In this document: one piece after another, positions 3,273 to 63,938 of the stretch
Numbering within the stretch: the first letter of the stretch is position 1
Layout of the letters: the number at the start of each line of letters is the position of its first letter
Source of the DNA: a virus
Direction: 5' to 3' (one strand)
DNA: 64,000 nt
Virus record (IMG/VR): IMGVR_UViG_3300031722_000008
Span: 1-64,000 of that record
The notes under the pieces: generated by a model
What the model was told of the DNA's origin: nothing
Databases searched by the model: none
The model's input: the letters and a program-made list of their open reading frames with translations, nothing else
Position numbers and translations under genes: made by a program

Positions 3273-3287
3273 GTATAAGATATTAAA
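3273..3287 (+). promoter_or_regulatory. Conserved phage promoter-like motif GTATAAGATATTAAA
   Basis: Exact copy upstream of RBS and ORF 3299. Confidence 0.8.
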
Positions 3288-3298
3288 TAAAAAGAAAG

Positions 3299-3682
3299 GT
3301 GATGGTAATTATGAATACAAAAATGAAATTAGGTTTAGGAATTGGAGCAATAGCAACAACAATAACAGGAGTAGTAGCAAGCAAAATTATTACAAGTAAA
3401 AGCAAAAAGAAAATTGAGGAAGGAGAATTTGATGAAGATCAAGAAAAGAAATTCAAGATTAAAAGTAGAATATTCGAAGGAATAGGAATAGCAGGAGTAA
3501 TAGCAGGAGTAGCAACATTAGGAACAATATTAATGGATAGTAACAATAAAAATGAAGATGAAAATGACGTGGAAGAAATAGAATACAACAATGAAGTGGA
3601 AGAAATAGAAATCAATGAAAATGAAATAGATAATGAAAAATTGGAAAATGAAATAAATAATGAAATAAAAGAAAATGAATAA
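3299..3682 (+). CDS. Small membrane protein (two hydrophobic segments, acidic tail)
   Basis: LGLGIGAIATTITGVVAS and GIGIAGVIAGVATLGTIL; purine-rich coding strand. Confidence 0.75.
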   Translation: MMVIMNTKMKLGLGIGAIATTITGVVASKIITSKSKKKIEEGEFDEDQEKKFKIKSRIFEGIGIAGVIAGVATLGTILMDSNNKNEDENDVEEIEYNNEVEEIEINENEIDNEKLENEINNEIKENE

Positions 3683-3771
3683 TAAAAAAGGTGGGGAGAC
3701 TCACCATTTTTTATTGTCAGAATTTTGTTTTAGCATTAGAATAAGAATGAATAATATATGGAGGTAATGTA

Positions 3772-4575
3772 ATGAACGAAAATTTAGAAAATGAAAAGAT
3801 ATTAGCATTAGAAAGTAAGGATTTGAATTCTCATAATCCAGGATATAATGTTGAAAGGAAATCACTAGATAAGATGAATAATAGCATGGCGAACATATCG
3901 CATCTACCTAAAAATCAGATCAAAGAAAATAATGGAATTAAAACCAAAATAAGAACAAGAAAAGAAGCTCGTATTATTTGGCAAACTTTTCTTAAAAAAT
4001 ATGCAGTAGATTTTGAGGCATATATGGGATATGGAATCAATGAAATCAAGAAGATAGGTTGGAGAGAATTTATTGATTTTATGGATTGGAGAGAAAAGGA
4101 AGATATTCCTAGATACAGAACGGACAGAGTAAAAGTTATTCCATGTCAGCATTGTGGAAATCACTTCACTACATTCCAAATAGATTTTGGTTTATGTAAT
4201 CAATGTAAAAAAATATATAATTTAAAGCATTTTGGAGAAGTATGTCAGTATAGTGACCAAGTGGATGCTGGTTCAAGTGGTGCTTTAGTAATAGCCTTTG
4301 CATATATGGATGAATTCAGAAAGATGTACAGGAACGATTTACCGCTAAAAGAGAAGATTGAAATGGCCGGACAGCTAGATGATTTTAGTGGACTATATAC
4401 ATTAAAATTATTAGAGAGTATTATTAGTGAAAATAAGGCAGATGAGTTTTTAAAAATAACAGATGAAACCCTTATAACTCAAAAAGCGATAAATAAATAT
4501 GAGTCTATAAAAACTATTCTTTTATCTTATGATTCTAATGAATTAAAGTTAAAAAGATTAAAAGATATTTTTTAA
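3772..4575 (+). CDS. Hypothetical protein with CxxC..CxxC zinc ribbon
   Basis: CQHCG...CNQC; RBS GGAGG. Confidence 0.75.
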   Translation: MNENLENEKILALESKDLNSHNPGYNVERKSLDKMNNSMANISHLPKNQIKENNGIKTKIRTRKEARIIWQTFLKKYAVDFEAYMGYGINEIKKIGWREFIDFMDWREKEDIPRYRTDRVKVIPCQHCGNHFTTFQIDFGLCNQCKKIYNLKHFGEVCQYSDQVDAGSSGALVIAFAYMDEFRKMYRNDLPLKEKIEMAGQLDDFSGLYTLKLLESIISENKADEFLKITDETLITQKAINKYESIKTILLSYDSNELKLKRLKDIF

Positions 4576-4590
4576 ATGCCTATATTTGTA

Positions 4591-4634
4591 GTATAAGATA
4601 TTAAAGGAGAAACATTAATGTTTCTCCTTTAATA
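4591..4634 (+). promoter_or_regulatory. GTATAAGATATTAAA motif overlapping a 36-bp perfect palindrome
   Basis: Motif at 4591-4605; tattaaaggagaaacatt|aatgtttctcctttaata at 4599-4634. Confidence 0.8.
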
Positions 4635-4655
4635 ATTTTTTAGGAGGAATTAATT

Positions 4656-5087
4656 ATGTCGAAGTCAATCAAGGTAAGCGAAAAACATGGAGTTAATCCC
4701 ACAATACCACTTTGTTTTTATTGTGGTGGACACAAAGAAGAAATTGTACTTATGGGAAAATTAAAAGATGATGCTGAAGCACCTAAGAATTTATTACTTG
4801 ATTATGAACCTTGTGATAAATGTAAGGAGCAATTTAAACAAGGCTTTTTGGTTACGGAAGTTTCTAGTGAACCTACAATTGAAAATCAACCACCGATTAC
4901 TAAGGGGCATTATCCAACAGGAAAGCTTTTACTTATTAAAAAAGAATCAGCAAAAGATATTTTCGGTAAAGACAAGGAATGGGAAAGTATGGAGAGAAGG
5001 AGTGCTGTTCTTCTAGATAAAGAAATCTTTGAACACATATTTGGAGATGCATTAAGAGAACAGCAAAAAGAAGTACAGGCACAATAA
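4656..5087 (+). CDS. Hypothetical Zn-binding protein
   Basis: CFYCG and CDKC; RBS AGGAGG. Confidence 0.75.
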   Translation: MSKSIKVSEKHGVNPTIPLCFYCGGHKEEIVLMGKLKDDAEAPKNLLLDYEPCDKCKEQFKQGFLVTEVSSEPTIENQPPITKGHYPTGKLLLIKKESAKDIFGKDKEWESMERRSAVLLDKEIFEHIFGDALREQQKEVQAQ

Positions 5088-5120
5088 TAAATTATTTCTG
5101 TTAACGAAAGGAGATTAATA

Positions 5121-5795: not shown

Positions 5796-5821
5796 AAAAT
5801 GTTATCAAAAAAATAAATTCA

Positions 5822-5835
5822 TATAAGGTATTAAA
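5822..5835 (+). promoter_or_regulatory. Variant promoter motif TATAAGGTATTAAA followed by a hairpin
   Basis: One mismatch in the 14-bp core; ttaaacga...tcgtttaa stem follows. Confidence 0.6.
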
Positions 5836-5886
5836 CGAGGGAAATTAATCTTCGTTTAAAATAAATTTTTTTAGGAGGAATAAAAA

Positions 5887-7154: not shown

Positions 7155-7230
7155 AACTATAATAGATAATTAAATGAAAGAGCCTTTCGGCTCTTTCATT
7201 TTTCATATTTTCATTTGGGAGGTAATTGTA

Positions 7231-7991: not shown

Positions 7992-8023
7992 AATAGAGCA
8001 TCTATAATTATAGATGCTCTATT
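7992..8023. promoter_or_regulatory. 32-bp perfect palindrome centred on CTATAATTATAG, upstream of nrdD
   Basis: aatagagcatctataa|ttatagatgctctatt. Confidence 0.6.
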
Positions 8024-8047
8024 TTTATTTTGAGGGAGGAAATTTTT

Positions 8048-10210: not shown

Positions 10211-10221
10211 ATTAAGGGGTG

Positions 10222-10383
10222 ATGATATTGGAAGAAATAAAATATGGATATCTAAGGGAACTAGAAATAAAGGATTTAGTAACTAGAAGATTCCATTTTT
10301 CAGCTAGATCAGTTATAGTTCCAAATACAAAAGAAATTAGAACAGATAATACTGAAAAAATAATAAATGAGAGAAAGGAGTAG
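10222..10383 (+). CDS. Small hypothetical protein (53 aa)
   Basis: Manual ORF after AAGGGG: MILEEIKYGYLRELEIKDLVTRRFHFSARSVIVPNTKE...; fills the gap between nrdD and the next gene. Confidence 0.6.
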   Translation: MILEEIKYGYLRELEIKDLVTRRFHFSARSVIVPNTKEIRTDNTEKIINERKE

Positions 10384-10385
10384 CT

Positions 10386-10589
10386 ATGTTTGAATTCATT
10401 AAGAAAATATTTAAGAAAGTAACACCTGAAATAAAATGTAGCACATGCAAAAAATGTAAGAGAATTAAGGAAGGTTGGTATTGTTCGATTCATTATAGTA
10501 CTCGCAAAAAAGGCTATAATTACTATTCATCAATATGTGGCAAGCAACGAATAAAAACTAAACCTAGATGGTGTCCATTAATTAAGTAG
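10386..10589 (+). CDS. Small Cys-rich protein
   Basis: CSTCKKC...C...C...PRWCPL; RBS. Confidence 0.7.
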   Translation: MFEFIKKIFKKVTPEIKCSTCKKCKRIKEGWYCSIHYSTRKKGYNYYSSICGKQRIKTKPRWCPLIK

Positions 10590-10835
10590 TTGGGAGGAAT
10601 AGCTATGCTCAATAGAATAGGTAAATTTATTTATGAAAAAATAGTCAGGAAAGTATTTAAGTATGAACCACTCCCAAACATAAAATTGGAGAGTTCATTA
10701 GAATTTCAAGGACATATACTCATGATAGAATCTATTTCCATGCATACTGAACTTGGCCAAGGTACAGAAGTTAGTTTCAAATGTAGGGATGATATTCTAT
10801 TACGATTAAAAAGGAGGATTGACATTGAAAATTAA
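10590..10835 (+). CDS. Hypothetical protein
   Basis: ORF in operon; GGAGG RBS before an internal ATG. Confidence 0.6.
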   Translation: MGGIAMLNRIGKFIYEKIVRKVFKYEPLPNIKLESSLEFQGHILMIESISMHTELGQGTEVSFKCRDDILLRLKRRIDIEN

Positions 10836-12955: not shown

Positions 12956-12970
12956 TAGGGGGAAATTAAA

Positions 12971-18353: not shown

Positions 18354-21300
18354 CTATTTTAGGTATTTATTTACATCTATTTTGTTATTAAAGAAGTTAG
18401 ACATTTTATTTGTATATTTATCTTTAAATTCATCTTTTAGTTCTGCACCTGCCCCGATGTTCAACATCTTACCAGCCATAAGTCTTGCTCTTGGGTCTTG
18501 TAGATTATCTACTGCTCCCATTTCAGCACCAGAAGCTAATGTTCCCATAAGACCTCCGGAATTTCTACTTCCCATATCACCAAACCAATTTCCAGTAACA
18601 CTTGCTGGCATTTTACCTTGAAGTAAAACTTGATATTCTATTGGTTTATATAATACTTTCACTTTTTCAGTATATTTAGAAAGTAAGGCTACATTCTCTG
18701 ATGTTATTATTGAACCTTTTTTAGCGACCAATTTGCCTCCAATAATAATGTCAGTGGCTAATGTTCTTCCAAGTAATTGAGTTGCATCTACGGGAGAAAT
18801 ATCTACTGTTTTTGTTCCAGTACAATTTTCCTTATTCCATCTATCATAAAGATTTACATCACCTTTTTGTCCTTTCATGAATGATGAATCTCCTGAATCT
18901 GTAATTTGTGCAGTACCTGTTAATTTAGATACTATAGTTTCTGCATGTCTTCTATCCATATAAGCATTGGAAGCCTTGATAGCATATTGCATAGAGTTTG
19001 CTAAATAGTCCCTTGTGTAATTTACTGCTTCATGTTGACCATTAGCTTCTGCTCTCAATTTAAATAATTTGCTAGGATCAGCATTAGTAAGTACTAACGT
19101 TGTTTTGTTATTATCCATTGTAGCAACGATATCGCTGGAATCACCGACAGTTAAGAAATCTCCTTTCTCTACTACATCTCCACGTTTAACCTTTAATGCT
19201 GGAGGTGTTTGACCTAACACTTTTTTGATGACGTGTTTTCTTTTTCCGATCATTATAGTTATTTCATTTGGAGTTTCAGTTACACTATCTACTGTTCCGC
19301 TTTGTTCTGCTAATACAGCTTTATTTGAAGGCTTACTGCTAAGGTCTAGTATATTGTTAACTCTAGGTAATCCAAGAGTAGCAGCTGAATTTGCACCACC
19401 AGTATGGAAAGTATTCATTGTCATTTGAGTAACAGGTTCTCCTATAGCTTGAGAAGCTATAACTCCAACAGCAGTTCCTATCTTGACTGGTTGTATTGTT
19501 CCTGCCATCGCACCGTAGCAATGTTGGCATTTTCCATGTGGAGTTTTACATCTAAGTGGAGAACGTACTGGAACATATTCAATAGTATCATCTTTGAATA
19601 TTGCGTTATACATTTCACCAGTAATTATTTGGTTTCTTTTACAGATAACTCTTCCGGTTGAATCTTTTATGTCTTGACCTGCATATCTACCTTTGATTGT
19701 TTTATCATTCTTTGAAAGATTGATAAATTCCTTTGTTCCACAATCTTTTTCTGTTACAACTAAGTCTTGAGTTGTTGACCAGACATCTCTAGTTAATGCT
19801 CCTGGTGCTTCTGTTGAAACTGATCTGTCATACATACCTTTTCTTGAATCTCTGCCTAGTGTGTAATAATCTTGAGGACTTAATCCATCAAAATGGGAAT
19901 TTCTTATAGGGCTTAATGTTTTTAAACTAACGTCCATACCAACACCGATAGTTGAGAACATTTTTCTGATTTGTTGAGCATTAGCTCTAGCCCCAGAACT
20001 CATCATTACTTGTAATGGATTATCACTAGGAAGTAAACCACCTTTCAATTTACCTTCTATTTCATTTTCAACTTTTTTCCAAGATTCAGGATCTGTACTA
20101 TCTCCTTTTGCAGTAATTTTATTAATCTCAGATGTTACATTCTTATCGAAAGTAAAGTCTTTAACTCCAAGAGATAATCCTGTTCTTGTTGAAGCTTTAA
20201 ATCCTAAGTCTTTAACTGCATCAAATAAATTAGCTATTTCAACTTTTGACATTAATTTGAATCCTGTCAATTCTGATTCCTCATAAGTTTTTATAAGCAT
20301 TTTCATTACTTCATCCTTAGTCCAAACTTTTCTGAAATCTCTGTACTTCTTTATTCTTTCAGGAATTACCCAGTTAAATAAAGCTTGACCTGCAGTTGTT
20401 TCTTGCATACATATTGGAACTCTAACCTTACTATCATGGTTTACTCTGCCCATTAGATAATCTTTTCTAAGGTCTTTTTCATTAGCATAAGATTTCACTG
20501 TACCCTTTGGCTTATCCCAATGATTAGTTAATTGATATATTCCAAGAGCCATTTCATGTCTTATTTCTATAACCATTTTACCATCAGTAGGGTTAATTAA
20601 ATTGTGTGATGGCATAGCAAGTCTTCTAGCTTCTTCTTTAGCTTTTTCTGTTACAGGAACATGAGCTGCCATTGTATCTCCATCGAAGTCAGCATTGTAT
20701 CCAGTAACTACAAGTGGATTAAGTTGTAAACTTCTTACTACACCGCCATCTTCGTATTCTTTAATGACAGGCTTCATAGCTTGAATACTGTATTTATGAA
20801 GTGATGGCTGTCTATTTAAGAATAAAAGTCTATCACTTGCAATCTCTTGTATTATTTTCTTTACTTCTTGGTCAGGTTTATTTACTCTGCTTTCAGCTTC
20901 AATATCATTTTTGCATATACCCTTATCAACTAATCCTTTGATGATGAATGGCTTGTAGAGTTGTTTTGCCATATCTAAAGGAACTCCAACTTCGTCTAAT
21001 CTTAGATTAGGGTCAACAGTTATAACTGATCTTCCAGAGAAATCAACTCTCTTTGCAAGCATTTCTTTTCTAACTAATCCAGCTTTAGAACTTAATGTAT
21101 CTTTCATTGATGTTATTGTTTTGTCTCCATCTTTAGCATCGATGTGGCCTTGAAGCATCTTTAATGAATCGTACATAACTTTACTTCTTTGAGCTAAATC
21201 TTTTGGCGCTAATCCAGTACCATCAACATTTCCGTTGTTATCTAATACAGCCTCTCTCTCGGCTACCTGTTTAGCCGATAAAACTTTAGAGTATAATTTA

Positions 21301-24300
21301 TTCAAGTCATTAATCAATACACTTCTATCCTCTTGTTTAGGAATTATAGGTCTTAAATAAGAAGGAGTAACAGGTAAATATTTAACCATTAAATCTTGTG
21401 GCTTTAAGTTATTGTGCTTTAACATCTCAAAAGCCTTAACTTTTTTGTAAGCTTTATTTATGTCGTCACCATTTTTTGCAACATCTAAATCTATTCTAGC
21501 TTTATCTAATGATTTATCTACATCAATATTTTTCAAAATATATTCTAATGCAGCACCACCTGTCTTATAAGGAATATTAACACCTTGTTCTTTTAGTTTA
21601 TCTAATACATCTATAGGAACTAATTGACCTGTCTTGAATCCATGTTCTTCCATATTAGCTTTGAATTGTTCCTTATACATCTTAACAAGTTCTGGATTCT
21701 CAATTCTAGATAATGATGATTCCATTTCAGAAACATCAGTAATAATAGCCTTAGGTCCTTTTTCTCCTGTCACTGTAGCTGGTGCAGCTAATTGTTTTAG
21801 CTCATCTCTCTTTAATCCAGTTATATGCTCATAAATATTATTAGAAGCATTTTCCATAAATAAAGGATTTGGTACAGGAATAGGAAGTTTTATATAACCC
21901 CACTTATCTCTATCTTCATCTGTTCCTTCACCGAAAATTTCAGAATCCATAAGTCCACCTTTTTGATCTGGTGCAGACTTTTTACTACTATCAGTTTTTG
22001 TATCCTTATCTCCGTATAACTTTCTAGCATCTAGTATTTTAGATTCGAATACTTCTTTATCCTTACCTATAGTTTTTATGAATTCTTCTTGATTTATAGG
22101 AGCTAAACCTAAACTATTAAATGGTTTATCAAGTGATGTTTGCACTCCATTGTACATAGGTTTAACATGAAGTCCTAATGTCTTTAATGAATCAATATAA
22201 ACTTTTAGAGTTTCAGGAGTTGCTGATTTAGATAATTCAGCAGCATCAAGATTACCTGTTGATATAGCTTTAAATATTGCAGCCTTGCCCTTAGAATCGC
22301 CACCACCATCAGCTTTGATAGTTTGGTTCTCTAATAGATTCCATGCTGCTCCATGACCTTGTAATGCTCTCATTTCCATTTCGCCCAATCTTTGAGGATT
22401 GAACTTTTCACCTTGAGCTGTTCCAGTTTCTTTTTTAGGCATATGAGTTTTAGATGTCAAAGAAGTTTCTCTGTTACTTCTCGATTGAATTTTATCATCA
22501 ACCTTATGCTTAAGTTTCATGATGTAACAATTACCAACTGTTACTGGATTTTCGATAGGAACATCAATAATATTTCCATCATCGTCTTCTTCCTTTAATG
22601 TAACTTTCATTTTTCCATCAGGGAATCCGATTTGTTTCAATCCTTCAAGAACTCTATCCTTTTCACGATGGTTAAAGTTATCAACAACAAATGTCTTACC
22701 AGTCTTTTCGGCAATAAGTCCTGCTGCTGCTTCAAGTAATTGTCCTGGGTTCTTTCTTGAAGGTACTGCAAGAGGTGACATCATTAAATCTAATGGCTTT
22801 CCATCTTCTGCTACAGGCATTAGATTGTCAGCTAACACTCTTGTTATTGTTCCTTTATTACCATGTCTACCTGCAATCTTATCTCCTTTTTTCAAAGCCT
22901 TTTTATTAACTATACTGAATATTACCTTTTGTTTATTAACAGCATCAGGACTATTAACAACGGTAATTCTTTCTATTTTACCAGCTACATATGAACCATG
23001 AGGTACATTCATTTCACTATATTTGTATTTAATTTTTCCACTACCTAATGAAATTAAATCAATGATATCATCTGATTCTTTTGTTATTTCTTTTAGATAT
23101 CCAACCAATACAGAGCCAGCTTTGATTTCTGTGCCGACTTTTATAATACCATCATTATCAAATAATGAAAGATTTGAATTTGTAGTTTCTTTCATTAATT
23201 CGCTTTTAATGTTACTTCCTTTTCCTCCTAATGCATTTTGAGGAATCATTATTTCTACTTCATTAAATTCATCAGAAGTCATTCTATTTGCAAAACTTTG
23301 AGATACAATAACACCATCTTCATAGTTATATCCTTTGTAAGGAACATACCCTATTCTAGTATTTAATCCCAATGCTAATTTTCCATCTTTTGTGTGCCAA
23401 CCCTCAGCAATTATTTGCCCTTGATTTACTTTATCTCCTACTTTAACTTTCAGCTCATTATTAATATAACTTTGATTTAAAGGATAATAATGATAGTAAG
23501 CATGAGGATACTCTTTCCCATCTTCTCCGATAACTATGATAGATGAGTTTGTTATAGTTTGAACTGTACCATTAACTGCTGCTCTAATTGGTTTACCTTG
23601 TTCTTCTCCAACCTTTTGATCGAAAGTTTCACCAGTATGCTTGTCAGCTAATGTTGTAACAAGTGCAGCTTGTCTATTAACTAAAGGTATTGCTTGTTTC
23701 TGCATGGCAGCACCCATAAGAGTTCTTGAACCATCATTATGAGCAACAAAGGGAATCATATTAGCTGATGTACCTAAGATAGATTGAGGTGATGCATCCA
23801 CATAATTAATTTTAGAGATTGGATACATTCCGTTCTTATTCATGTATCTAGCAGGAACTACATCTTCTGTAAATACATACTTATTACCATCTTTATTTAC
23901 ATATCTTGAATCATTGAAAGCTATGATATTTTCCTCTTCCTCATTAGGAGATAATCTTAGTTTATTGGCATCACTTATGATAGCCTCACCATTTAACACT
24001 CTTAGGAATTCAGATTTTATTGTATGATTTTCTATCCTAGCTCCAACAGTTAAATGTTGAGTAAAACCTATCTTTCCACTTTCAGGAGTTTCAACTGGGT
24101 CTATTTTATTTATTCCACTTTGAGTTAAATTTCTAGCATCAGTTTCATTTCTCATGGAATTCTTACTCATTCCGTCTGGTCCACCTTGAGTAATTTCTCT
24201 TTGTTTAGCCTCCATAAATAAAGGATTTATTTCTTCTGAAGCTAAGCAAAGTTCACTATTCATAAGACCATTTCTACCATTTAAATCATTGTGAATAGTA

Positions 24301-25340
24301 TTTTGCATACCAGTAAGTAAAGGTGCACCTTTCTTTGTTGAATCATAAGAAGTCATCTTAGTTTTTACTGACTCTAAAAATTTATCTATACCATTAACTA
24401 TTGATTCAAAAATTAAATCATTGTCACTGTATATTTCTTTATATTTTATTAAGTCTTTTGTATCTTCCTCAACAAGTCCTGTAGAAACTGATACAGTCTT
24501 TTTTACAGCTTTAGAAATAAGTTCTTTATTTAGATAAAGATTATTTGTAGTCTTACCTAGTGTTGAACTTATAGCTGAACCATCTCCAAATGTAGCATGT
24601 TGAGCAAAGAAAGCTAATATATTTTCTCTCTTCTTAGCATCACTTAGATTTTCTCCACTGACTGCTCTAGGGAAGAATATTTTATATAATGTATCTAATG
24701 ATTTTTCATTTCTTTTCTTTTGATTTATAGTCATTATTGCATCAGAAGCATCGCTATCGCCGAATGACTTTTTAATTTCTGCATCAGTAAAACCTAATAG
24801 TGTCATTAAATTTACAACATTAAATTTAATTGCTGCACCATAAGATTTTATTTCTGTATTGAATACCTTTGTTTCGGGATCTAATATCATTGTCATTGCT
24901 GGCATGAATGCTCCAGCTACCTTATTTCTTTCAAATCTAAGCTGAGTCTTGATATTCCCATTACTAGATTTATTAGTATAACATCCAGGTTTCATTCTCA
25001 TTTGAGATATTATATTTTTTTCAATTCCATTAACAAGATAGGTACCTCTTTCTGTTGCTACAGGAAAAGTTACCAATTTTGCATAATGTCCATTATGAAC
25101 CGATGTACCTGCTCCATTAGTAATTTTAATTGTACCAGAAACAAACCCCTCAGTATTCCCACTTCCTGAGTATTTCATGTTAAGTTGATTATCGATATTA
25201 TAATTTGATTCAGGAATATTAACTTTTAAATTATCAATGTTAAGTTGTAATCCATGCTCACCTTTTAGGGGTAAACTTCCATTAATATATTTAACTATTC
25301 GATTCGCTAATTCTGTTGATTTATCAATCATTCTATTCAC
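18354..25340 (-). CDS. rpoBC: Single-polypeptide fused beta-beta' DNA-directed RNA polymerase (bacterial type)
   Basis: beta motifs PVETPE, GYNYED, GDKIAGRHGNKG, KLKHKVDDKIQSR, QRLGEME, then beta' motifs KRVDFSGRSVI, NRQPSLH, NADFDGD (20676-20696), SGAR, CxxxxGxCxxCYG, GEPVTQMTMNTFHTGG, all in one ORF. Confidence 0.97.
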   Translation of the reverse strand: MNRMIDKSTELANRIVKYINGSLPLKGEHGLQLNIDNLKVNIPESNYNIDNQLNMKYSGSGNTEGFVSGTIKITNGAGTSVHNGHYAKLVTFPVATERGTYLVNGIEKNIISQMRMKPGCYTNKSSNGNIKTQLRFERNKVAGAFMPAMTMILDPETKVFNTEIKSYGAAIKFNVVNLMTLLGFTDAEIKKSFGDSDASDAIMTINQKKRNEKSLDTLYKIFFPRAVSGENLSDAKKRENILAFFAQHATFGDGSAISSTLGKTTNNLYLNKELISKAVKKTVSVSTGLVEEDTKDLIKYKEIYSDNDLIFESIVNGIDKFLESVKTKMTSYDSTKKGAPLLTGMQNTIHNDLNGRNGLMNSELCLASEEINPLFMEAKQREITQGGPDGMSKNSMRNETDARNLTQSGINKIDPVETPESGKIGFTQHLTVGARIENHTIKSEFLRVLNGEAIISDANKLRLSPNEEEENIIAFNDSRYVNKDGNKYVFTEDVVPARYMNKNGMYPISKINYVDASPQSILGTSANMIPFVAHNDGSRTLMGAAMQKQAIPLVNRQAALVTTLADKHTGETFDQKVGEEQGKPIRAAVNGTVQTITNSSIIVIGEDGKEYPHAYYHYYPLNQSYINNELKVKVGDKVNQGQIIAEGWHTKDGKLALGLNTRIGYVPYKGYNYEDGVIVSQSFANRMTSDEFNEVEIMIPQNALGGKGSNIKSELMKETTNSNLSLFDNDGIIKVGTEIKAGSVLVGYLKEITKESDDIIDLISLGSGKIKYKYSEMNVPHGSYVAGKIERITVVNSPDAVNKQKVIFSIVNKKALKKGDKIAGRHGNKGTITRVLADNLMPVAEDGKPLDLMMSPLAVPSRKNPGQLLEAAAGLIAEKTGKTFVVDNFNHREKDRVLEGLKQIGFPDGKMKVTLKEEDDDGNIIDVPIENPVTVGNCYIMKLKHKVDDKIQSRSNRETSLTSKTHMPKKETGTAQGEKFNPQRLGEMEMRALQGHGAAWNLLENQTIKADGGGDSKGKAAIFKAISTGNLDAAELSKSATPETLKVYIDSLKTLGLHVKPMYNGVQTSLDKPFNSLGLAPINQEEFIKTIGKDKEVFESKILDARKLYGDKDTKTDSSKKSAPDQKGGLMDSEIFGEGTDEDRDKWGYIKLPIPVPNPLFMENASNNIYEHITGLKRDELKQLAAPATVTGEKGPKAIITDVSEMESSLSRIENPELVKMYKEQFKANMEEHGFKTGQLVPIDVLDKLKEQGVNIPYKTGGAALEYILKNIDVDKSLDKARIDLDVAKNGDDINKAYKKVKAFEMLKHNNLKPQDLMVKYLPVTPSYLRPIIPKQEDRSVLINDLNKLYSKVLSAKQVAEREAVLDNNGNVDGTGLAPKDLAQRSKVMYDSLKMLQGHIDAKDGDKTITSMKDTLSSKAGLVRKEMLAKRVDFSGRSVITVDPNLRLDEVGVPLDMAKQLYKPFIIKGLVDKGICKNDIEAESRVNKPDQEVKKIIQEIASDRLLFLNRQPSLHKYSIQAMKPVIKEYEDGGVVRSLQLNPLVVTGYNADFDGDTMAAHVPVTEKAKEEARRLAMPSHNLINPTDGKMVIEIRHEMALGIYQLTNHWDKPKGTVKSYANEKDLRKDYLMGRVNHDSKVRVPICMQETTAGQALFNWVIPERIKKYRDFRKVWTKDEVMKMLIKTYEESELTGFKLMSKVEIANLFDAVKDLGFKASTRTGLSLGVKDFTFDKNVTSEINKITAKGDSTDPESWKKVENEIEGKLKGGLLPSDNPLQVMMSSGARANAQQIRKMFSTIGVGMDVSLKTLSPIRNSHFDGLSPQDYYTLGRDSRKGMYDRSVSTEAPGALTRDVWSTTQDLVVTEKDCGTKEFINLSKNDKTIKGRYAGQDIKDSTGRVICKRNQIITGEMYNAIFKDDTIEYVPVRSPLRCKTPHGKCQHCYGAMAGTIQPVKIGTAVGVIASQAIGEPVTQMTMNTFHTGGANSAATLGLPRVNNILDLSSKPSNKAVLAEQSGTVDSVTETPNEITIMIGKRKHVIKKVLGQTPPALKVKRGDVVEKGDFLTVGDSSDIVATMDNNKTTLVLTNADPSKLFKLRAEANGQHEAVNYTRDYLANSMQYAIKASNAYMDRRHAETIVSKLTGTAQITDSGDSSFMKGQKGDVNLYDRWNKENCTGTKTVDISPVDATQLLGRTLATDIIIGGKLVAKKGSIITSENVALLSKYTEKVKVLYKPIEYQVLLQGKMPASVTGNWFGDMGSRNSGGLMGTLASGAEMGAVDNLQDPRARLMAGKMLNIGAGAELKDEFKDKYTNKMSNFFNNKIDVNKYLK

Positions 25341-25508: not shown

Positions 25509-25551
25509 TTTACCACACCCCAATCCATTTTTCTATTTAACCCTACACTAA

Positions 25552-25566
25552 GTATAAGATATTAAA
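25552..25566 (+). promoter_or_regulatory. GTATAAGATATTAAA motif with no substantial downstream gene
   Basis: Exact copy; terminator about 30 nt downstream. Confidence 0.75.
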
Positions 25567-25596
25567 GAAGAAATATAAACAGGGAAAGATGTATAA

Positions 25597-25630
25597 ATTA
25601 AAAACGAGGGCATTGCCCTCGTTTTTAATT
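25597..25630. terminator. Bidirectional terminator after the portal gene
   Basis: aattaaaaacgagggc-att-gccctcgtttttaatt. Confidence 0.85.
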
Positions 25631-27501
25631 TAGCTTTCTCTTCTTGGTGGTTTTTGATTAGGTAATGGTCTCATGTCAATTTTATCTTTAGATTGTTTAG
25701 TTTGTTTAGTTTGCTCTAATTCAGCTAATCTCTTTTCTACCATGCCTTTAGCTTCCATTGGTATCTTGGATAAATATTGGGTTTGTTGTTCTTTAGGCAT
25801 TTTAATTAAGCTAAGAGCTATCCTGTTTACTTCTTTCTCAACATCACCATTGTTTTGTTGTCCCTCTTGAGGTTGTTGAGACTGCTTACTTTCCCCTGCT
25901 TGTTGATTAGTGGCTTGTTGTTCACCAGTTCCTCCAGATTGAGGAGCTTGTTGTTCTTCAGGATTAATATTAACTCCGTATTGCTGTGCAAGTTTTTGTT
26001 GCATTGCTTGTAATTTAAACTGCATTTCCATTTGTTTTATTTGGAGTTGTTCCTGTAGCTCCATAGATTCTATTTGCATTTTAATCTTCTCATTTTCGGC
26101 TTTCGTTTGAAGAAGTAGAGCATCCATAGTTTCCTTTTCGATGGCTTCTTTCATCTTATCAGAATCCATACCCATTGCTTTCCACATATAATCATTAGAA
26201 CATTTATTTGCACTATTCAACTGAATAATTAATTGTTTTTGTTGAACATCATCTTGCATTTTTAGGTCAGACATTTTTACTGAAAGTAATGCATCATCAT
26301 CTTCTTCTGATAACCATTCACCCCTGGCTTTTGCCATACCCCTAATTATAAAGTTTTGCATAAAATCTTCTAAAAGAAGTCTATATGTTATAAATTGATT
26401 TTCTAATATTCTAAGAGATATTGAACTTCCTGAATAACTTACTCCACCGAAAATAAATTCTTTAGGCATATTCATACCAGCTAAGATTTCAGATTGAACT
26501 TGGTCTATTTCAGGAGCAAGTAATAAACTTCTTCCTTCTCCACCAACATTTATAACATTAACTGGTACTGGAGATACAACTTTATAGTTAGGATCCCTAA
26601 CAGATTTTTTTATTTGGTCAGCTAAGTCCTGTGCTGTTTTATTCCAATCAGCTTGAATGTTAACAGTATTTGTTCTATCAAGATAATATATTCTCATTGG
26701 CACTATATGCTCTCTAGCGATAGCCTCTTGTGCTTGCCTAAGAACATTTCTGTACATCAATAGTTTTAGTACGTTTGCTACTACAGGAACTCCCCAGACG
26801 CTATTATCACCCATAGAATCGGTCGCTCTACTGAAATGATAAACATTATCAGGGTTTAGTATGATACTTTTATTTTTTCTAACAGCTTGTTTCATAAGTT
26901 CTGGTATTTTTTCATATTCAGCTTTCGGTTGTTTCTTTGTTACTATATCTCTTATTTTTTGAGGAATAGTCCATCGAAATGTCTTACTTCCTGTAGCTGG
27001 ATTATAATCTATAATCATTTTCGAAGGATCTAATCTAATCATATTAGTCCATTCTTTTTCACCCTTAGAGTTTCCTCCAAGCTCACCCATAACAAAGCAA
27101 TTTCCATATAAAAAGTAATCTATCCCTATCTCTATAAGTAATTTATGAAGATTAAGATTTTTAAATAAAACCTTCTCATAGAGTTTAACTGAATCTGATT
27201 TTTCTTTACTTTTATTTTCATCATCTTCTAGTGTAACTTCGGATACAGGGAATGTAGCTAACGCATTGATAGCTCCACTTATTAATGGATCAAATGTATA
27301 GTAATATTTACACCATTTAAATACATCTATAGTTGATTCAGGTAATTGCATATCAGAAAGATTTAAAAAAGGTGATGGATATGGATTTTGCATATTACCT
27401 CTGAATGAGGCTACCTTTTCTTGCGAACCTTCAATGGCTGCATTAAGTTCTTTCTCTAACATGGCTTTTTTATCTTTCTCATCTAAAAACCCTTTACTCA
27501 T
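25630..27501 (-). CDS. Putative portal protein with Gln-rich C-terminal extension
   Basis: DPLISGAIN, DYFLYGNCF, RLDP, NVYHF, WGVP, ILAGMNMP portal-like pattern; near terminase and protease. Confidence 0.75.
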   Translation of the reverse strand: MSKGFLDEKDKKAMLEKELNAAIEGSQEKVASFRGNMQNPYPSPFLNLSDMQLPESTIDVFKWCKYYYTFDPLISGAINALATFPVSEVTLEDDENKSKEKSDSVKLYEKVLFKNLNLHKLLIEIGIDYFLYGNCFVMGELGGNSKGEKEWTNMIRLDPSKMIIDYNPATGSKTFRWTIPQKIRDIVTKKQPKAEYEKIPELMKQAVRKNKSIILNPDNVYHFSRATDSMGDNSVWGVPVVANVLKLLMYRNVLRQAQEAIAREHIVPMRIYYLDRTNTVNIQADWNKTAQDLADQIKKSVRDPNYKVVSPVPVNVINVGGEGRSLLLAPEIDQVQSEILAGMNMPKEFIFGGVSYSGSSISLRILENQFITYRLLLEDFMQNFIIRGMAKARGEWLSEEDDDALLSVKMSDLKMQDDVQQKQLIIQLNSANKCSNDYMWKAMGMDSDKMKEAIEKETMDALLLQTKAENEKIKMQIESMELQEQLQIKQMEMQFKLQAMQQKLAQQYGVNINPEEQQAPQSGGTGEQQATNQQAGESKQSQQPQEGQQNNGDVEKEVNRIALSLIKMPKEQQTQYLSKIPMEAKGMVEKRLAELEQTKQTKQSKDKIDMRPLPNQKPPRRES

Positions 27502-38044: not shown

Positions 38045-38104
38045 GTTATTCCCTCCGTTTCTATTTCATTATAAATGCAAAGATAATTTTTGTAAAACAA
38101 GGCT

Positions 38105-40616: not shown

Positions 40617-40631
40617 GTATAAGATATTAAA
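40617..40631 (+). promoter_or_regulatory. GTATAAGATATTAAA motif
   Basis: Exact copy upstream of ORF 40660. Confidence 0.8.
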
Positions 40632-44159: not shown

Positions 44160-44171
44160 GTATAAGATATT
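44160..44171 (+). promoter_or_regulatory. Variant promoter motif GTATAAGATATT
   Basis: First 12 of 15 bases match; upstream of ORF 44204. Confidence 0.7.
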
Positions 44172-44203
44172 TGTAAATAGAACAAATAATAAAAGAAGGA
44201 AGG

Positions 44204-46261: not shown

Positions 46262-46276
46262 GTATAAGATATTAAA
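46262..46276 (+). promoter_or_regulatory. GTATAAGATATTAAA motif
   Basis: Exact copy directly upstream of a tRNA-like element. Confidence 0.8.
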
Positions 46277-48098: not shown

Positions 48099-48437
48099 AT
48101 GAAAATAATTAATTTAGTAGCACATAATATAAATGTATTAAACAAAGATGGCAAAGAAATAATAATTCCTCCTAGTGGGAAAATAGTAAGAGTAGAATTT
48201 GTTCAAGAAGAAATTAATAATGTAGATAATTTTTCTATCTTTAAGAAAAGTTATAACAATGTAAAGTTTCCTATTGATATAGAAAGTGATAAATTCTACA
48301 TCGTCAGTAGAGAGGTGCTTAAAGCTCTACAAGAGCAAGATTATCCTATGGTTAATAACTTTATGTCTCCGAACACAACGAAGGCTAAGAAAGACGAGAA
48401 TGGGGTTATTTTAAACGTTAGGGGCTTTACTGTATAA
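48099..48437 (+). CDS. Hypothetical phage protein
   Basis: MKIINL..H.I...IPPSG; RBS. Confidence 0.75.
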   Translation: MKIINLVAHNINVLNKDGKEIIIPPSGKIVRVEFVQEEINNVDNFSIFKKSYNNVKFPIDIESDKFYIVSREVLKALQEQDYPMVNNFMSPNTTKAKKDENGVILNVRGFTV

Positions 48438-48446
48438 GATATTAAA
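48432..48446 (+). promoter_or_regulatory. GTATAAGATATTAAA motif
   Basis: Exact copy overlapping the upstream stop codon. Confidence 0.8.
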
Positions 48447-52854: not shown

Positions 52855-52923
52855 TCATGTATAATAATATATCATTTCTAAAAATACTTTGTCAATACTA
52901 TTTTTTAAAATAGTATAAATAGG

Positions 52924-52938
52924 GTATAAGATATTAAA
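52924..52938 (+). promoter_or_regulatory. GTATAAGATATTAAA motif
   Basis: Exact copy upstream of ORF 52958. Confidence 0.8.
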
Positions 52939-53305: not shown

Positions 53306-53327
53306 GAAGTGGGCGAAAGCCCACAAA

Positions 53328-54293: not shown

Positions 54294-54308
54294 GTATAAG
54301 ATATTAAA
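54294..54308 (+). promoter_or_regulatory. GTATAAGATATTAAA motif
   Basis: Exact copy. Confidence 0.8.
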
Positions 54309-54333
54309 CAAGATATAGAAAGAGGTGAAATTA

Positions 54334-55741: not shown

Positions 55742-55756
55742 GTATAAGACATTAAA
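55742..55756 (+). promoter_or_regulatory. Variant motif GTATAAGACATTAAA
   Basis: 14/15 match. Confidence 0.75.
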
Positions 55757-56002: not shown

Positions 56003-56034
56003 GGTGAGGGGTTAAAATCCCTCACAATATTCTC

Positions 56035-56049
56035 GTATAAGATATTAAA
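56035..56049 (+). promoter_or_regulatory. GTATAAGATATTAAA motif
   Basis: Exact copy. Confidence 0.8.
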
Positions 56050-56253: not shown

Positions 56254-56289
56254 TTAATGGGGATAAATCCCCATTAATATTTTTTATTA

Positions 56290-56304
56290 GTATAAGATAT
56301 TAAA
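56290..56304 (+). promoter_or_regulatory. GTATAAGATATTAAA motif
   Basis: Exact copy followed by two hairpins, upstream of the amylase. Confidence 0.8.
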
Positions 56305-58337: not shown

Positions 58338-59783
58338 ATGGAGAGAAAATCTATAAAATTAAAGATAGATTCAAAGGAAGAAATAAGGGAAATGTCTATA
58401 GATGAAGTTTATGAACAATTTAAAAACTTCATCTATAAGTCCTGTCAATCATGGCTCAGACAATATGAATTTGATGATTTATGCCAAATTGCATCAATAG
58501 GATTAACAAAAGCTTATAATAAATATGACGTAAGTAAGGATATATTATTCCTAACATATGCAGCAAGAATAGTGCAAAATGAAATTCTCATGTACAATAG
58601 AAAAAATAAAGAGAATTATTTTTGTGATAGCCTTAATAGAACAATACTTGGAAAAGATGATAGTGAGGAAGAGTTACAATCTTTTATTCCTGACAGTATC
58701 AATATAGAAGATGATGTTGTTCAAAAATATCAATGTATTGAATTACAAGAAGTAATAGAGAATCTAACAGATAGAGATAAAGAGATAGTGACAGAGATTG
58801 CTTTTAATGAAAAGACACAGCTTCAATTATCGGAGAAGTTAGGCTTGTCCCAATCTTACGTATCAAGAATATATAGCAGAACATTAAAAACAATAAAGGG
58901 TAGAATGGAGAATGATGATATGCCTCACGAATTAAAAATAACAAGAGAACAATTACTCAAAGATTGCTTAGTTCTTGGCACTAGCAAAACAGCACAACAA
59001 ATAATTGCTGATACTTATGGATTCTCGAACCGATTAACTGTCGGTAATTATATTTCTAAGTTTAAAATAAAGGAGGAAATGGTAAAAATCAAAGAGAAAG
59101 AAATGAAAGATGAGGGGGAGGATATTAAAGTGAGAAAAGAAGATGCAAAAATAACAAGAGAGCAATTACTCAAGGAATGCATGGCTGTCGGAACCAGTTG
59201 GTCATCAGCTAAAAAAATAGCTGATAAATACGGATTGGCTCACGCAACCATAGGTAATTATATCAATAGAATGAAAATCAGAGAAGAAATTGATAAGATG
59301 GATAATAATAAAAAACCTGAAGAAATTGATAAGATGGATAATAATAAAAAACCTGAAGAAAATAATGTAGTTGAGAATCCTATTCTTGATAATAGGATTT
59401 CTAAAGAGATTGTTAGTGATAATATAAAGCTTTCAAAAACAATAAATAGAAATCCTGCGCTATCAAAGGACAATATTGTTATGAGAGACTATAAACCTAA
59501 AACATGGGATGAATACGCGAAAGACCATGATGGCGATGTTCCTAGACAAAAGATTCTGGAGAATAGATCAAAATTAAGATCTATTCTCCGAGGTAATATT
59601 GGTGAATATGATATTACAGGTGAATTGATAGCAGCAAAAATTAATGGTTCTAGTATAATTATAGATGAATCAGAGATACCAGAACTAATCGAAGAACTTC
59701 AAGAATTAATGAAAGCAATGAAAGGTATGGCTTATGTGAACTATCTAAAGAATGATACAGAAAGGAAAGTAAGTAATGATTAG
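58338..59783 (+). CDS. SigE/SigK-like sigma-70 factor fused to a C-terminal region with duplicated HTH-like repeats
   Basis: Region 2 DDL.Q.ASIGL.KA..KYD...FLTYAARIVQNEILMY; region 4 TQ.QLSEKLGLSQSYVSR; two KITREQLLK.C...GT repeats. Confidence 0.85.
   Translation: MERKSIKLKIDSKEEIREMSIDEVYEQFKNFIYKSCQSWLRQYEFDDLCQIASIGLTKAYNKYDVSKDILFLTYAARIVQNEILMYNRKNKENYFCDSLNRTILGKDDSEEELQSFIPDSINIEDDVVQKYQCIELQEVIENLTDRDKEIVTEIAFNEKTQLQLSEKLGLSQSYVSRIYSRTLKTIKGRMENDDMPHELKITREQLLKDCLVLGTSKTAQQIIADTYGFSNRLTVGNYISKFKIKEEMVKIKEKEMKDEGEDIKVRKEDAKITREQLLKECMAVGTSWSSAKKIADKYGLAHATIGNYINRMKIREEIDKMDNNKKPEEIDKMDNNKKPEENNVVENPILDNRISKEIVSDNIKLSKTINRNPALSKDNIVMRDYKPKTWDEYAKDHDGDVPRQKILENRSKLRSILRGNIGEYDITGELIAAKINGSSIIIDESEIPELIEELQELMKAMKGMAYVNYLKNDTERKVSND
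59283..59354 (+). repeat. Perfect 36-bp tandem duplication in the coding region (EEIDKMDNNKKP x2)
   Basis: gaagaaattgataagatggataataataaaaaacct twice. Confidence 0.9.
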
Positions 59784-62306: not shown

Positions 62307-62351
62307 GTATAAGATATTAAAGCAGAAGAGCAACGATATCGTTGCTCTTCT
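62307..62351 (+). promoter_or_regulatory. GTATAAGATATTAAA motif followed by a 28-bp perfect palindrome
   Basis: Motif at 62307-62321; agaagagcaacgat|atcgttgctcttct at 62324-62351. Confidence 0.8.
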
Positions 62352-62374
62352 CTAATTTTATGGAGGTATTAAAA

Positions 62375-62764
62375 ATGGAGAGAGTATCATTCAAAGAAGC
62401 AATAATAGAAAGTGCAAAAGATATGATTACAGATTTTACAGTGGACGGTGAGTGCTCAAATTGTGGTAATTGCTGTACTAATTTACTACCAATGAGCAAG
62501 GAAGAAATAAAGAGAGTCCAAAAGTATGTCACAGATAATAATATAAAGGAGCAGTCCAATATCAATCCATTAGAAAAATATCCACCAATAGATATGGTAT
62601 GTCCTTTCAGAAACAATAAGAATAAGTCTTGCAATATCCATGATGTTAGACCAAAAGTATGTAGAAAATTTATCTGCAACAAACCAGTAGAAGCTAAGAA
62701 AAATAGAGATTTATTCAGCAGAACATTACAGATAATTAATTGCAGAGCTACATTTTTTAAGTAG
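62375..62764 (+). CDS. YkgJ/CxxCxxCC-family Zn/Fe-chelating protein
   Basis: CSNCGNCC...CPF...CNIHDVRP.VCRKF. Confidence 0.85.
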   Translation: MERVSFKEAIIESAKDMITDFTVDGECSNCGNCCTNLLPMSKEEIKRVQKYVTDNNIKEQSNINPLEKYPPIDMVCPFRNNKNKSCNIHDVRPKVCRKFICNKPVEAKKNRDLFSRTLQIINCRATFFK

Positions 62765-62776
62765 GGGGAATTAAAT

Positions 62777-62968
62777 ATGAAATTTGTAGGAATTATAAAA
62801 TTGAAAAATGGACACAATATACCAGTAAAAATAGATGCTGATAATGAAATTAAAGCGAAAGATGAAATTAAGGAAAACATTAGTCAAGTTACTAACCAAG
62901 AAGTAGAAGATATTATTTGTGCGAGTTTAAATTTTGGATTCAATATTATCACAAGGGGGCATCAATAG
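62777..62968 (+). CDS. Small hypothetical protein
   Basis: RBS GGGGG. Confidence 0.6.
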   Translation: MKFVGIIKLKNGHNIPVKIDADNEIKAKDEIKENISQVTNQEVEDIICASLNFGFNIITRGHQ

Positions 62969-62970
62969 AA

Positions 62971-63657
62971 ATGCAATTATATTTATATGATCCAATGAAC
63001 AATGTTAAAACGCCAACCAGCTACAAATTATTATCAGGAATAACAGGAATGAACAAAGGAGATTTAGCAGTCTATAAGTCTAGACGTAATAAGCTTGGAG
63101 CTCTACATCGCTACATTGTTGATGAAAAAACAACCAAAGAAGAACTCTATGAATTAATGCTTAAAGAGAAACCTAAAGATGAAATATGGAAGAATGTTGA
63201 GAATGAATATCAAATAAGTAATTATGGTAGATTCAGAAGATTGTATAAATCTAAAGGACCAAGACTTCTGATGCCATACAGGAAGAAAAATAAGTGGCTA
63301 GTAGTAAAGATACATGGTAAGGAAGTAGAGATTCATAAGTTAGTTGCCCATGCATTCTTAGAAGTTCCTGAGGGCAAATGTATATATCATAAGAATGAAA
63401 ATATTTGGTACAACCATGTAAGTAATATAGGTTTTGCAACAAGAAAAGAACTTGGCGAAATGTTTGGTGGTAGTAGTTCAAAAGGAATCCCTGTATCAAA
63501 GATAGATTTAGATACAGGCGAAGTCTTAGATGAATATGATAACATGGCTGTCGCAGGTAGAGAAAATTATATGAGTAGAGAAGCTATAAGATTGGCCATT
63601 GAGGAAAATAGACCATCTTGTGGATTCGGTTGGAAGAAATGTGCTAATTGGGACTAA
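62971..63657 (+). CDS. NUMOD4/HNH-type homing endonuclease-like protein
   Basis: EIWK.V...YQISNYGR (NUMOD4), HKLVA.AFL, H.N.N...N.VSN, C-terminal NUMOD1-like region (G.GWK). Confidence 0.8.
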   Translation: MQLYLYDPMNNVKTPTSYKLLSGITGMNKGDLAVYKSRRNKLGALHRYIVDEKTTKEELYELMLKEKPKDEIWKNVENEYQISNYGRFRRLYKSKGPRLLMPYRKKNKWLVVKIHGKEVEIHKLVAHAFLEVPEGKCIYHKNENIWYNHVSNIGFATRKELGEMFGGSSSKGIPVSKIDLDTGEVLDEYDNMAVAGRENYMSREAIRLAIEENRPSCGFGWKKCANWD

Positions 63658-63681
63658 GTACCTAGTAAGGAGGAATTAATT

Positions 63682-63924
63682 ATGAAAAAAGATAAAATGT
63701 ATTGTGGTAAGGTATATATTGACGAGGAATTAAAAAATGTTCTGATTGAATATGGGGTAATAATATTAGGTATCTATGACAAGAAACTTAAATGTTATGA
63801 AAATTGTTTGATGTCAATCCCAGTCTTTAATAAGCTAATGTTATTAGCGAAGAAAGGTGCATTATATTTCGACGGTTCTTTAATGGCCAATGTAGATGAG
63901 TTACAAAAACATATTTCTTTATAG
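63682..63924 (+). CDS. Hypothetical protein
   Basis: AAGGAGG RBS. Confidence 0.65.
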   Translation: MKKDKMYCGKVYIDEELKNVLIEYGVIILGIYDKKLKCYENCLMSIPVFNKLMLLAKKGALYFDGSLMANVDELQKHISL

Positions 63925-63938
63925 TATAAGATATTAAA
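63924..63938 (+). promoter_or_regulatory. GTATAAGATATTAAA motif (precedes a partial ORF starting ~63967)
   Basis: Exact copy. Confidence 0.8.

Follow-up and report, generated by a model that had tools for sequence, protein, structure and literature searches.

The stretch of viral DNA analysed here (below, the window) is 64,000 nucleotides long and represents bases 14-64013 of the 79,987-bp IMG/VR record IMGVR_UViG_3300031722_000008, denoted G000, for which CheckV gives a completeness of 52%. Its intergenic regions carry a repeated 15-bp motif, GTATAAGATATTAAA, which a preliminary description of the window had interpreted as a strand-specific promoter and the likely target of an RNA polymerase (RNAP) encoded by the phage. 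The motif-headed genes of the plus strand encode NrdD, an NrdG-like activase, ThyX, an XPD-type helicase, a SprT-like protein, a GH13 amylase-like protein and a sigma factor, together with many small proteins that have no orthologs in relatives. The minus strand carries a fused beta-beta’ RNAP, the portal, TerL, a prohead-protease-like gene, a helicase and a tRNA array, and no motif copy heads virion or RNAP genes.

The two gene sets are separated also by an independent marker, the EKxA peptide (often as an N-terminal YKEQIEKQA), which is present in 19 of 27 minus-strand versus 1 of 46 plus-strand proteins (p = 2e-10; window proteins of at least 100 amino acids (aa), minus-strand span 299-62239). 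This peptide occurs on enzymes as well, for example, on the helicase encoded at 38105-39721, and is a candidate capsid-targeting or protease-cleavage tag. Its signal is much weaker in the two complete relatives with which G000 was compared, G001 (166.8 kb, 38% GC) and G002 (152.6 kb, 31% GC).

Motif copies and their surroundings

All 12 exact copies listed in the preliminary description were found at their positions, 12/12 on the plus strand and 0 on the minus strand, while the chance expectation from 100 dinucleotide-preserving shuffles of the window is 0.00. The variant copies named along with them were recovered at 55742 (one mismatch) and 44160 (three mismatches), and the one placed at 5822 begins in fact at 5821 and has two mismatches. 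A scan of both strands, which had been recommended, was run on the 79,987-bp record and revealed 13 exact copies, 20 copies at no more than one mismatch and 21 at no more than two, all of them on the plus strand; at the last threshold the reverse strand of the record yielded 0 copies.

Position-by-position counting in G000 confines the conserved block to motif positions 1-15 with sharp edges, and position 9 is the sole variable one within it (T, C or A), T9C being the most frequent variant genome-wide. A T is found two bases 5’ of the motif in 42 of the 46 non-redundant sites of the three genomes, and a GAAnA tail on the 3’ side is conserved more weakly; the family consensus core can be written as T-n-G-Y-A-T-A-A-G-R-N-A-T-W-A-A-A. 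Since the flanks are unrelated at 18 of the 21 sites of G000 once paralogous cassettes are collapsed, the conservation is not the result of mere duplication, and selection acts on the short block itself.

All copies are intergenic in a simple gene map, and mostly 17-30 nt separate the motif end from a start codon preceded by a strong Shine-Dalgarno sequence, in agreement with the earlier claim that most copies shortly precede a ribosome-binding site (RBS), usually in units closed by a terminator. Terminator-like hairpins are two- to three-fold more frequent than in shuffles (16 observed versus 7.1 ± 2.6 expected at 1-20 kb, and 26 versus 9.1 ± 3.4 at 45-64 kb); several of them close motif-headed units, and many motif copies abut such hairpins on their 5’ side.

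In the left part of the window, the exact copy at 3273..3287 (+, as are all copies listed here) stands after the terminator-like hairpin 3212-3248 and heads the genes 3311-3682 and 3772-4575. The exact copy at 4591..4605 is followed by a leader hairpin with a T-run (4599-4634, -14.9 kcal/mol), an RBS and the gene 4656-5087. The variant ATATAAGGTATTAAA with two mismatches (5821..5835), followed by the leader hairpin 5831-5859, heads a long plus-strand operon for replication and nucleotide metabolism with the genes for NrdD, the NrdG-like protein, ThyX and the helicase. An “orphan” exact copy at 25552..25566 runs into the terminator 25594-25632 after about 30 nt.

Two exact copies head lone plus-strand genes among minus-strand genes, and motif and hairpin together frame these units: the copy at 40617..40631 precedes the gene 40660-41193, closed by the hairpin 41192-41223 (unit 40617 to 41223), and the copy at 52924..52938 precedes the gene 52967-53305 with the terminator 53309-53324 (unit 52924 to 53324). 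Another exact copy (54294..54308) heads a small open reading frame (ORF), 54325-54483, which likewise lies amid minus-strand genes. The variant GTATAAGATATTTGT at 44160..44174, whose three mismatches fall at the 3’ end, lies 5’ of 44204-44413 and is probably a weak or variant site. The exact copy at 48432..48446 heads the gene 48469-48867, after which a terminator-like hairpin is located (48872-48891), and that at 46262..46276 is followed by the SprT-like gene 46425-47042 with its terminator 47045-47075. Between this copy and the SprT-like gene, directly 3’ of the motif, the stretch 46277-46364 (+) has a tRNA-like look (tagctcagttggttagagcgg ... ggttcaagtcctac), and ARAGORN called no tRNA here.

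In the right part, the variant GTATAAGACATTAAA (T9C, one mismatch, 55742..55756) is divergent from the minus-strand gene 54507-55697. The exact copy at 56035..56049 abuts the hairpin 56004-56025 and heads 56068-56253; the terminator of this unit, 56253-56278, is in turn abutted by the exact copy at 56290..56304, which heads an operon with the GH13 amylase-like gene and a sigma factor gene. Directly after the exact copy at 62307..62321 comes a leader hairpin (62324-62351, -20.1 kcal/mol), and the exact copy at 63924..63938 heads a gene that starts at 63958.

A plus-strand gene that is embedded in a minus-strand block or located behind a terminator needs a promoter of its own, so the promoter reading follows from the layout, and this anatomy together with the same position of the motif before orthologous operons of the relatives supports the reading strongly. 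We consider it very improbable that the motif instead serves as the operator of a DNA-binding regulator of the phage, or as a signal acting at the RNA level such as a processing site or a leader element. Its location just 5’ of RBSs, and the inclusion of its last three bases in a leader hairpin at some copies, would suit these roles; however, no upstream plus-strand transcript is expected where copies abut terminators or head lone plus-strand genes, the asymmetry of the motif is not typical of dimeric operators, and the 17-30 nt between motif and RBS contain no other promoter-like element.

A conserved minority of the copies have a stable hairpin with a T-run (-7 to -20 kcal/mol) directly after the motif and before the RBS, and its stem often begins at the terminal AAA of the motif. 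Besides the three leader hairpins given above and the leader of the 56290 copy, this group includes copies of G000 beyond the window (72906 and 74631 in window numbering) and copies in G001 (15437, 62589 and 108374) and G002 (22649 and 83269), and in each of the three genomes the replication operon is headed by such a copy. The hairpins could represent either a promoter-proximal attenuator, that is, a timing device, or a 5’ stabiliser. Within the replication operon of the window, strong terminator-like hairpins are located also at 7172-7201 and 7992-8023 (+) with no motif after either, which implies that read-through or antitermination is needed to reach NrdD and the later genes.

Distribution of the motif among related phages

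A megablast search of the annotated phage collection found no close phage relative, and an alignment-based viral scan gave no further close relatives. The closest cultured relatives of the RNAP belong to Vibrio phages D69, D148 and D181 and to Salmonella phage Arash (about 26% identity), and in IMG/VR four contigs, G001-G004, encode a full-length fused RNAP with 42-45% identity. A broader metagenome scan (loci L155-L234) revealed about 400 contigs from freshwater, soil, marine and engineered sites that code for full-length relatives of the fused beta-beta’ RNAP, mostly at 25-30% identity. The family is therefore large and mostly undescribed.

Sister motifs were found in both complete relatives, GTATAAGA[A/G]ATAAAA in G001 and G[T/C]ATAAGA[T/A]ATAAAA in G002, again just 5’ of RBSs, and an ortholog map shows that the same replication operon is motif-headed in all three genomes (the G002 copy is the one at 83269). 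Strand counts are 21:0 in G000 (at no more than two mismatches), and for the 8-mer core they are 23:0 in G001 (GTATAAGA) and 14:2 in G002. The head-portal-RNAP block of G002, being inverted, has the same orientation as the motif, yet about 18 kb of it are free of any copy, which means that the placement is ruled by gene class and not by strand. Strand specificity, as it had been described, is thus correct as an observation for G000, while as a rule it proves to be a by-product of gene class. The inverted module occupies 91766-107711 in G002 (18354-33506 in the window) and directly adjoins the 3’ side of the replication operon, with which it shares the strand.

Beyond these two genomes, the motif is present in the contigs G003 and G004, in L155 (69% RNAP identity), L156 (46%, four copies) and L157 (46%), so that the RNAP identities of motif-bearing relatives range from about 41 to 69%. 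In L155 the motif is divergent from the RNAP start, the same arrangement as at 25552 in the window; the ATTAAA variant is common to the window and to this closest relative, and the ATAAAA variant occurs in more distant ones. The motif was not detected in L159 (32% RNAP identity), in Arash and D69 it does not exceed a reversed-pattern control, and three complete unrelated phages with one chance copy each show neither motif enrichment nor an RNAP of this kind. When IMG/VR was scanned for the motif first, single chance matches dominated among the matches listed; one of these remains ambiguous, the 11% fragment G005, whose 32 kb contain two copies and no RNAP. Judged from these sequences, which form a small sample for co-occurrence, the motif appears to co-occur and co-diverge with the lineage of the phage RNAP.

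Two classes of promoters

The preliminary description had stated that no TTGACA -35 box is seen upstream of the motif and that such invariance is unlike sigmaA promoters, and the closer comparison agrees with it on both points. No TTGACA-like -35 element is present: positions -24 to -21 are about 60% T, and just 2 of 46 sites have a G as the third base of the -35 box. In the TATAAG register the base at T-7, which is among the most critical bases of the -10 box, is an invariant G in about 60 sites of the three genomes; no motif register keeps a TAnnnT -10 box across G000, G001 and G002, and the conserved T-n-G of the motif is out of register with the TGn of an extended -10 promoter.

One can suggest that the motif is still a uniform and strong -10-only promoter of the host sigmaA holoenzyme, in which TATAAG would serve as the -10 box and the remaining bases would be kept because they strengthen the start site or the discriminator or are needed by a phage regulator. 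TATAAG coincides with TATAAT in five of six bases, a weak TTT..A is present at -35 with 17-bp spacing, and many phages use the host RNAP for their early genes. We regard this explanation as quite unlikely, because the G at T-7 is invariant while no TGn stands in register to offset the missing -35, no alternative register keeps TAnnnT in the relatives, an invariance of 15-17 bases across phages of different environments is atypical of sigmaA promoters, and the same genomes use a canonical TTnAnA-17-TATAAT for another gene class.

This second class was revealed by aligning upstream regions of the virion strand on TATAAT, in which case positions -23 to -18 read T (15/20), T (14/20), T/G, A, n, A, that is, a canonical -35 element with a 17-bp spacer. 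Of the 26 virion-strand regions examined in G001, 15 contain TATAAT in the sense orientation and 6 in antisense, and all 10 motif-class regions are without it. The anchored analysis replaced scans of whole regions with the sigma-70 consensus, which in this AT-rich DNA gave no excess over shuffles (86 versus 102, 93 versus 93.5 and 88 versus 105), and a strand-mixed count of TATAAT is uninformative.

Judging by sequence matches, sigmaA-type promoters precede virion genes, the RNAP gene, the gene of a second sigma factor (sigma(b), see below) and the tRNA array. The minus-strand matches in the window include TTTACA-17-TATAAT at 38068..38096, located 5’ of the gene 36788-38044; TTGACA-18-TATATT with a TG at 52866..52895, located 5’ of the tRNA array; and two further examples at 36071-36043 and 18330-18302. 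The candidate promoter of the RNAP operon (25551..25579, -) consists of TTTATA (25579-25574), a 17-bp spacer and TATACT (25556-25551), and the latter box is overlapped by the first five bases of the orphan motif at 25552. This overlap may reflect autoregulation of the RNAP by promoter occlusion, or the orphan copy may produce a short RNA. Since the phage uses two promoter types, some component must tell them apart.

Two other likenesses were considered and rejected. The resemblance to the late -10 box GATATT of phage SPO1 fails in the relatives, which read GAAATA or GAGATA there. The sigmaK -10 box CATAnnnTA corresponds only partly to GCATAAGATA of G002, the likeness is lost in G001, and G002 has no ortholog of the SigK-like sigma factor of the window.

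The phage RNA polymerase and its candidate sigma factors

The fused beta-beta’ RNAP of 2328 aa (18354..25340, -) contains all Pfam domains of beta and beta’, with the NADFDGD catalytic loop at residue 1549, and retains the clamp coiled-coil on which sigma region 2 docks. The absence of any cysteine between residues 938 and 1476 means that the N-terminal zinc-binding domain (ZBD) of beta’ is missing, while the C-terminal Zn site is kept, and the same holds for G001 and G002. The ZBD loss, which the preliminary description had connected to a -35-independent promoter, is thus real in three genomes, and its tie to -35 independence is a speculation. A search for the alpha subunit (PF01000) in G000, G001 and G002 found none; omega was not searched. 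The portal gene (25630..27501, -) is located directly 5’ of a small ORF (25344-25508) and the RNAP gene, so that portal, small ORF and RNAP follow one another in the same order as gp204-gp205-gp206 of Arash. The EKxA peptide was considered as evidence for packaging, and the RNAP does not have it.

The sigma factor of the window, sigma(a) (58338..59783, +), is encoded within a motif-driven operon and belongs to the sigma-70 family, with regions 2 and 4 resembling those of SigF/E/K (Pfam Sigma70_r2 7.7e-11 and r4 1e-8; TIGR02937 81.6 bits versus a cut-off of 42.9) and a C-terminal extension of about 290 aa that gives weak HTH (helix-turn-helix)/GerE-like matches. Its ortholog in G001, a reciprocal best match of 201 aa, is encoded directly behind a motif copy, and none is present in the complete G002. 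Sigma(a) is itself a product of the motif regulon, and G002 can dispense with it, which makes it an unlikely reader of the motif; sigma(b) is the better candidate for this role. At L022:4005-4190 (-), G002 has a stand-alone ORF of 61 aa for a GerE/LuxR-type HTH (region-4-like), adjoining an NlpC/P60 gene.

Sigma(b) was seen in G001 and G002, where it has 280-300 aa and is encoded on the virion-gene strand between the genes for Baseplate_J and an M23/PG-binding lysin. The two proteins share 37% identity (E 1e-55) with synteny kept, and both co-occur with the RNAP and the motif in these complete relatives. Homology to regions 2-4 of RpoD/SigA is detectable (NCBIfam 1.2e-11; PDB 7ckq_F 2.2e-7), at a level below every curated cut-off, and Pfam does not recognise the protein. 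The segment YATWWIRQ, containing the tryptophan dyad for -10 melting, is replaced by YIFDTLPN.

For sigma(b) of G001 and the beta’ clamp region, complex prediction gave a score of 0.59 versus 0.00 for the best control, the runs agreeing in at least 57% of contacts with a partner pLDDT of at least 71. Among solved complexes, 58 of 80 passed the same mark, as did 2 of 110 mismatched pairs, although at scores of 0.60 or lower there are just 7 of these 80 complexes and both passing mismatches. Moreover, the prediction may show mere likeness, since sigma-core complexes have already been solved. We consider it weak support for a pairing of sigma(b) with the clamp.

The co-occurrence of sigma(b) with the motif would be equally expected if sigma(b), delivered in the virion or made from a sigmaA promoter, redirected the core RNAP of the host to the motif and the phage RNAP served another class. 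Retargeting of the host core has textbook precedents in gp28 and gp33/34 of SPO1 and in gp55 of T4, and the late promoters of T4 (TATAAATA) are also -35-less and rely on an extended -10 only. Nevertheless, this explanation seems rather unlikely: no distinct promoter class would then be left for the 2300-aa phage RNAP, as the other class is canonical sigmaA-type, and the divergence of sigma(b) beyond Pfam detection is more easily reconciled with co-evolution with a diverged core than with binding to a conserved host core. In addition, alignment suggests that several basic positions of the bacterial consensus are not kept in the clamp helix of the phage beta’.

Which enzyme reads the motif, and when

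From these data we infer, with somewhat better than even confidence, that the motif is a core promoter read by the phage RNAP, likely together with sigma(b), and not by the sigmaA holoenzyme of the host. The proposal of the preliminary description that the motif is the target of the phage RNAP thus gains from the tracking of the fused RNAP lineage, from the features that set the motif apart from sigmaA promoters and from the contrast with the sigmaA-type class, and the assignment is an indirect one. The motif would span the region from a -10-like element to the start site with no -35 needed. Transcription would begin at about motif positions 13-18, as is suggested by the short leaders (17-30 nt) and by the hairpin stems that often begin at the terminal AAA. 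The class of genes served in this way would comprise those of replication and nucleotide metabolism, one for a sigma factor, and small genes specific to the lineage, which number in the dozens.

Several points weigh against this reading. TATAAG is close enough to TATAAT for a sigma-70-type holoenzyme of the host to be a conceivable reader, and at the -35 distance (17-bp spacing) there is a weak T-rich and then A-rich tendency, a part of which comes from the T-runs of terminators just upstream. Sigma(b), seen in G001 and G002 only (the record of G000 itself being 52% complete), could equally redirect the host core. Motif-rich genomes without the RNAP were looked for only among the matches listed. 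As to the delivery of the enzyme, Arash is distant (about 26% identity) and has no such motif, nothing in the sequence of the RNAP marks it for packaging as it is free of EKxA, and the sigmaA-like candidate promoter of its gene fits also an order of events in which the host polymerase acts first.

Two such orders may be proposed. In the first one, the RNAP and sigma(b) would be made together with the virion proteins, packaged and injected, and would read the motif as an early class. In the second, T7-like one, the sigmaA holoenzyme of the host would first make the RNAP and sigma(b), after which the phage enzyme would read the motif. The second order is consistent with the sigmaA-type promoters that precede the genes for the RNAP and sigma(b), and with the absence of EKxA from the RNAP. 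The first is supported by the succession of portal, small ORF and RNAP, by the early-type functions of the motif-headed genes, by the proteome of Arash particles, which when purified contain beta (represented by more spectra than any other protein), beta’ and the sigma factor Gp10 (PMC10585845), and by the precedent of AR9, in which contiguous, AT-rich and near-invariant early promoters are read by an injected multisubunit RNAP (PMC5312081). Either order is compatible with the central claim of the preliminary description, and on this analysis, we slightly favour the first one.

Taken to its full extent, the reading of the motif by the phage RNAP suggests a self-contained sigma-dependent system, which we put forward tentatively, as a possibility with less than even chances. 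A ZBD-less RNAP and a sigma factor devoid of the tryptophan dyad, both carried in the virion, would read a -35-less early promoter of 17 bp with G at T-7; attenuators made of a hairpin and a T-run before the replication operon would set the delay of delayed-early relative to immediate-early genes, and early and replication expression would be independent of the host polymerase.

Comparison with known systems and significance

Promoters of the T7 type extend over 23 bp (-17 to +6) and are recognised by a single-subunit RNAP. The motif, likened to phage-RNAP promoters already in the preliminary description, resembles them as an invariant, contiguous and strand-specific promoter that is repeated along the genome and is private to a phage polymerase. 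However, the T7 enzyme is single-subunit and Pol I-like, its gene is early and transcribed by the host, and T7 promoters drive late genes. The late promoters of T4, with TATAAATA at -10, are used by the minimal sigma factor gp55 with gp33 and the sliding clamp, and here the likeness consists in a -35-less, extended -10 of the TATAA type and a highly diverged reader of the sigma family. In T4 this reader operates on the host core for the late class, whereas here the class is of replication/early type and the phage brings its own core. Examples of private promoters are known from the polymerases of T7-like phages, N4, phiKZ/AR9 and crAss-like phages, and to our knowledge none of these enzymes is a sigma-using bacterial-type core.

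The early promoters of the Bacillus jumbo phage AR9 and of phiKZ-like phages (AAATATATATTAT-N6-G+1) are, like the motif, contiguous, AT-rich and nearly invariant, about 13-15 bp long and without a -35 element (PMC5312081). Further likenesses are the dozens of copies that head early-type genes, often back-to-back with opposite promoters of virion genes, and the position of the polymerase genes among late or virion genes. The motif does not match the AR9 consensus, AAATATATATTAT-N6-G, so the resemblance is one of architecture only. The RNAPs of AR9 and phiKZ are split, extremely diverged and devoid of a sigma-70-family factor, in contrast to the single-chain bacterial-type enzyme, the sigma-70-family protein sigma(a) and the putative sigma factor sigma(b) described here. 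Delivery in the virion, shown for AR9, may apply to the present phage, to judge from the place of the RNAP gene in the portal operon and from analogy with the Arash proteome.

Arash and the Vibrio phages D69, D148 and D181 carry RNAPs of the same broad family (25-26% identity over 67-92% of the protein). Arash encodes the portal gp204, the small gp205, beta gp206, beta’ gp216, the helicase gp217 and the sigma factors gp10 and gp196 (PMC10585845), and this group shares with the phages studied here the order of portal, small ORF and RNAP as well as the presence of two sigma factors, of which one is encoded amid genes for structural proteins and cell-wall hydrolases. The group differs in its RNAP, which is split into two genes, and in its hosts, which are Gammaproteobacteria; in Arash and D69 the motif is not above control. 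The beta- and beta’-encoding mReC clade of Caudovirales (Weinheimer and Aylward 2020, PMC7481178) is similar in uniting tailed, mostly metagenomic phages with bacterial-type large RNAP subunits. The Arash paper (PMC10585845) describes no promoters, the word “promoter” appears nowhere in the text of the mReC paper (PMC7481178), and in the searchable literature we found no description of a promoter for this RNAP family.

Polymerases that are encoded by phages and have private promoters are well known as a kind of system, whereas a sigma-using single-chain core of the bacterial type with a -35-less promoter of 17 bp, as proposed here, is not. The host is probably a Firmicute, given the strong AGGAGG RBSs and the GC content of about 31%, and the set of NrdD, NrdG-like protein and ThyX points to a strictly or facultatively anaerobic one. 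The genes for NrdD, the NrdG-like radical-SAM activase and ThyX all lie within 8030-13981 (+).

Since a defined promoter, a core enzyme and two candidate sigma factors are combined in one sub-lineage, the system is directly testable in vitro. It could show how recognition of the sigma-70 type proceeds when the promoter has no -35 element and carries G instead of T-7 and the enzyme has no ZBD in beta’, and it may yield an orthogonal set of sigma factor, core and promoter for Firmicutes. In the annotation of these uncultured genomes, the motif can be used to mark the classes of non-virion versus virion genes.

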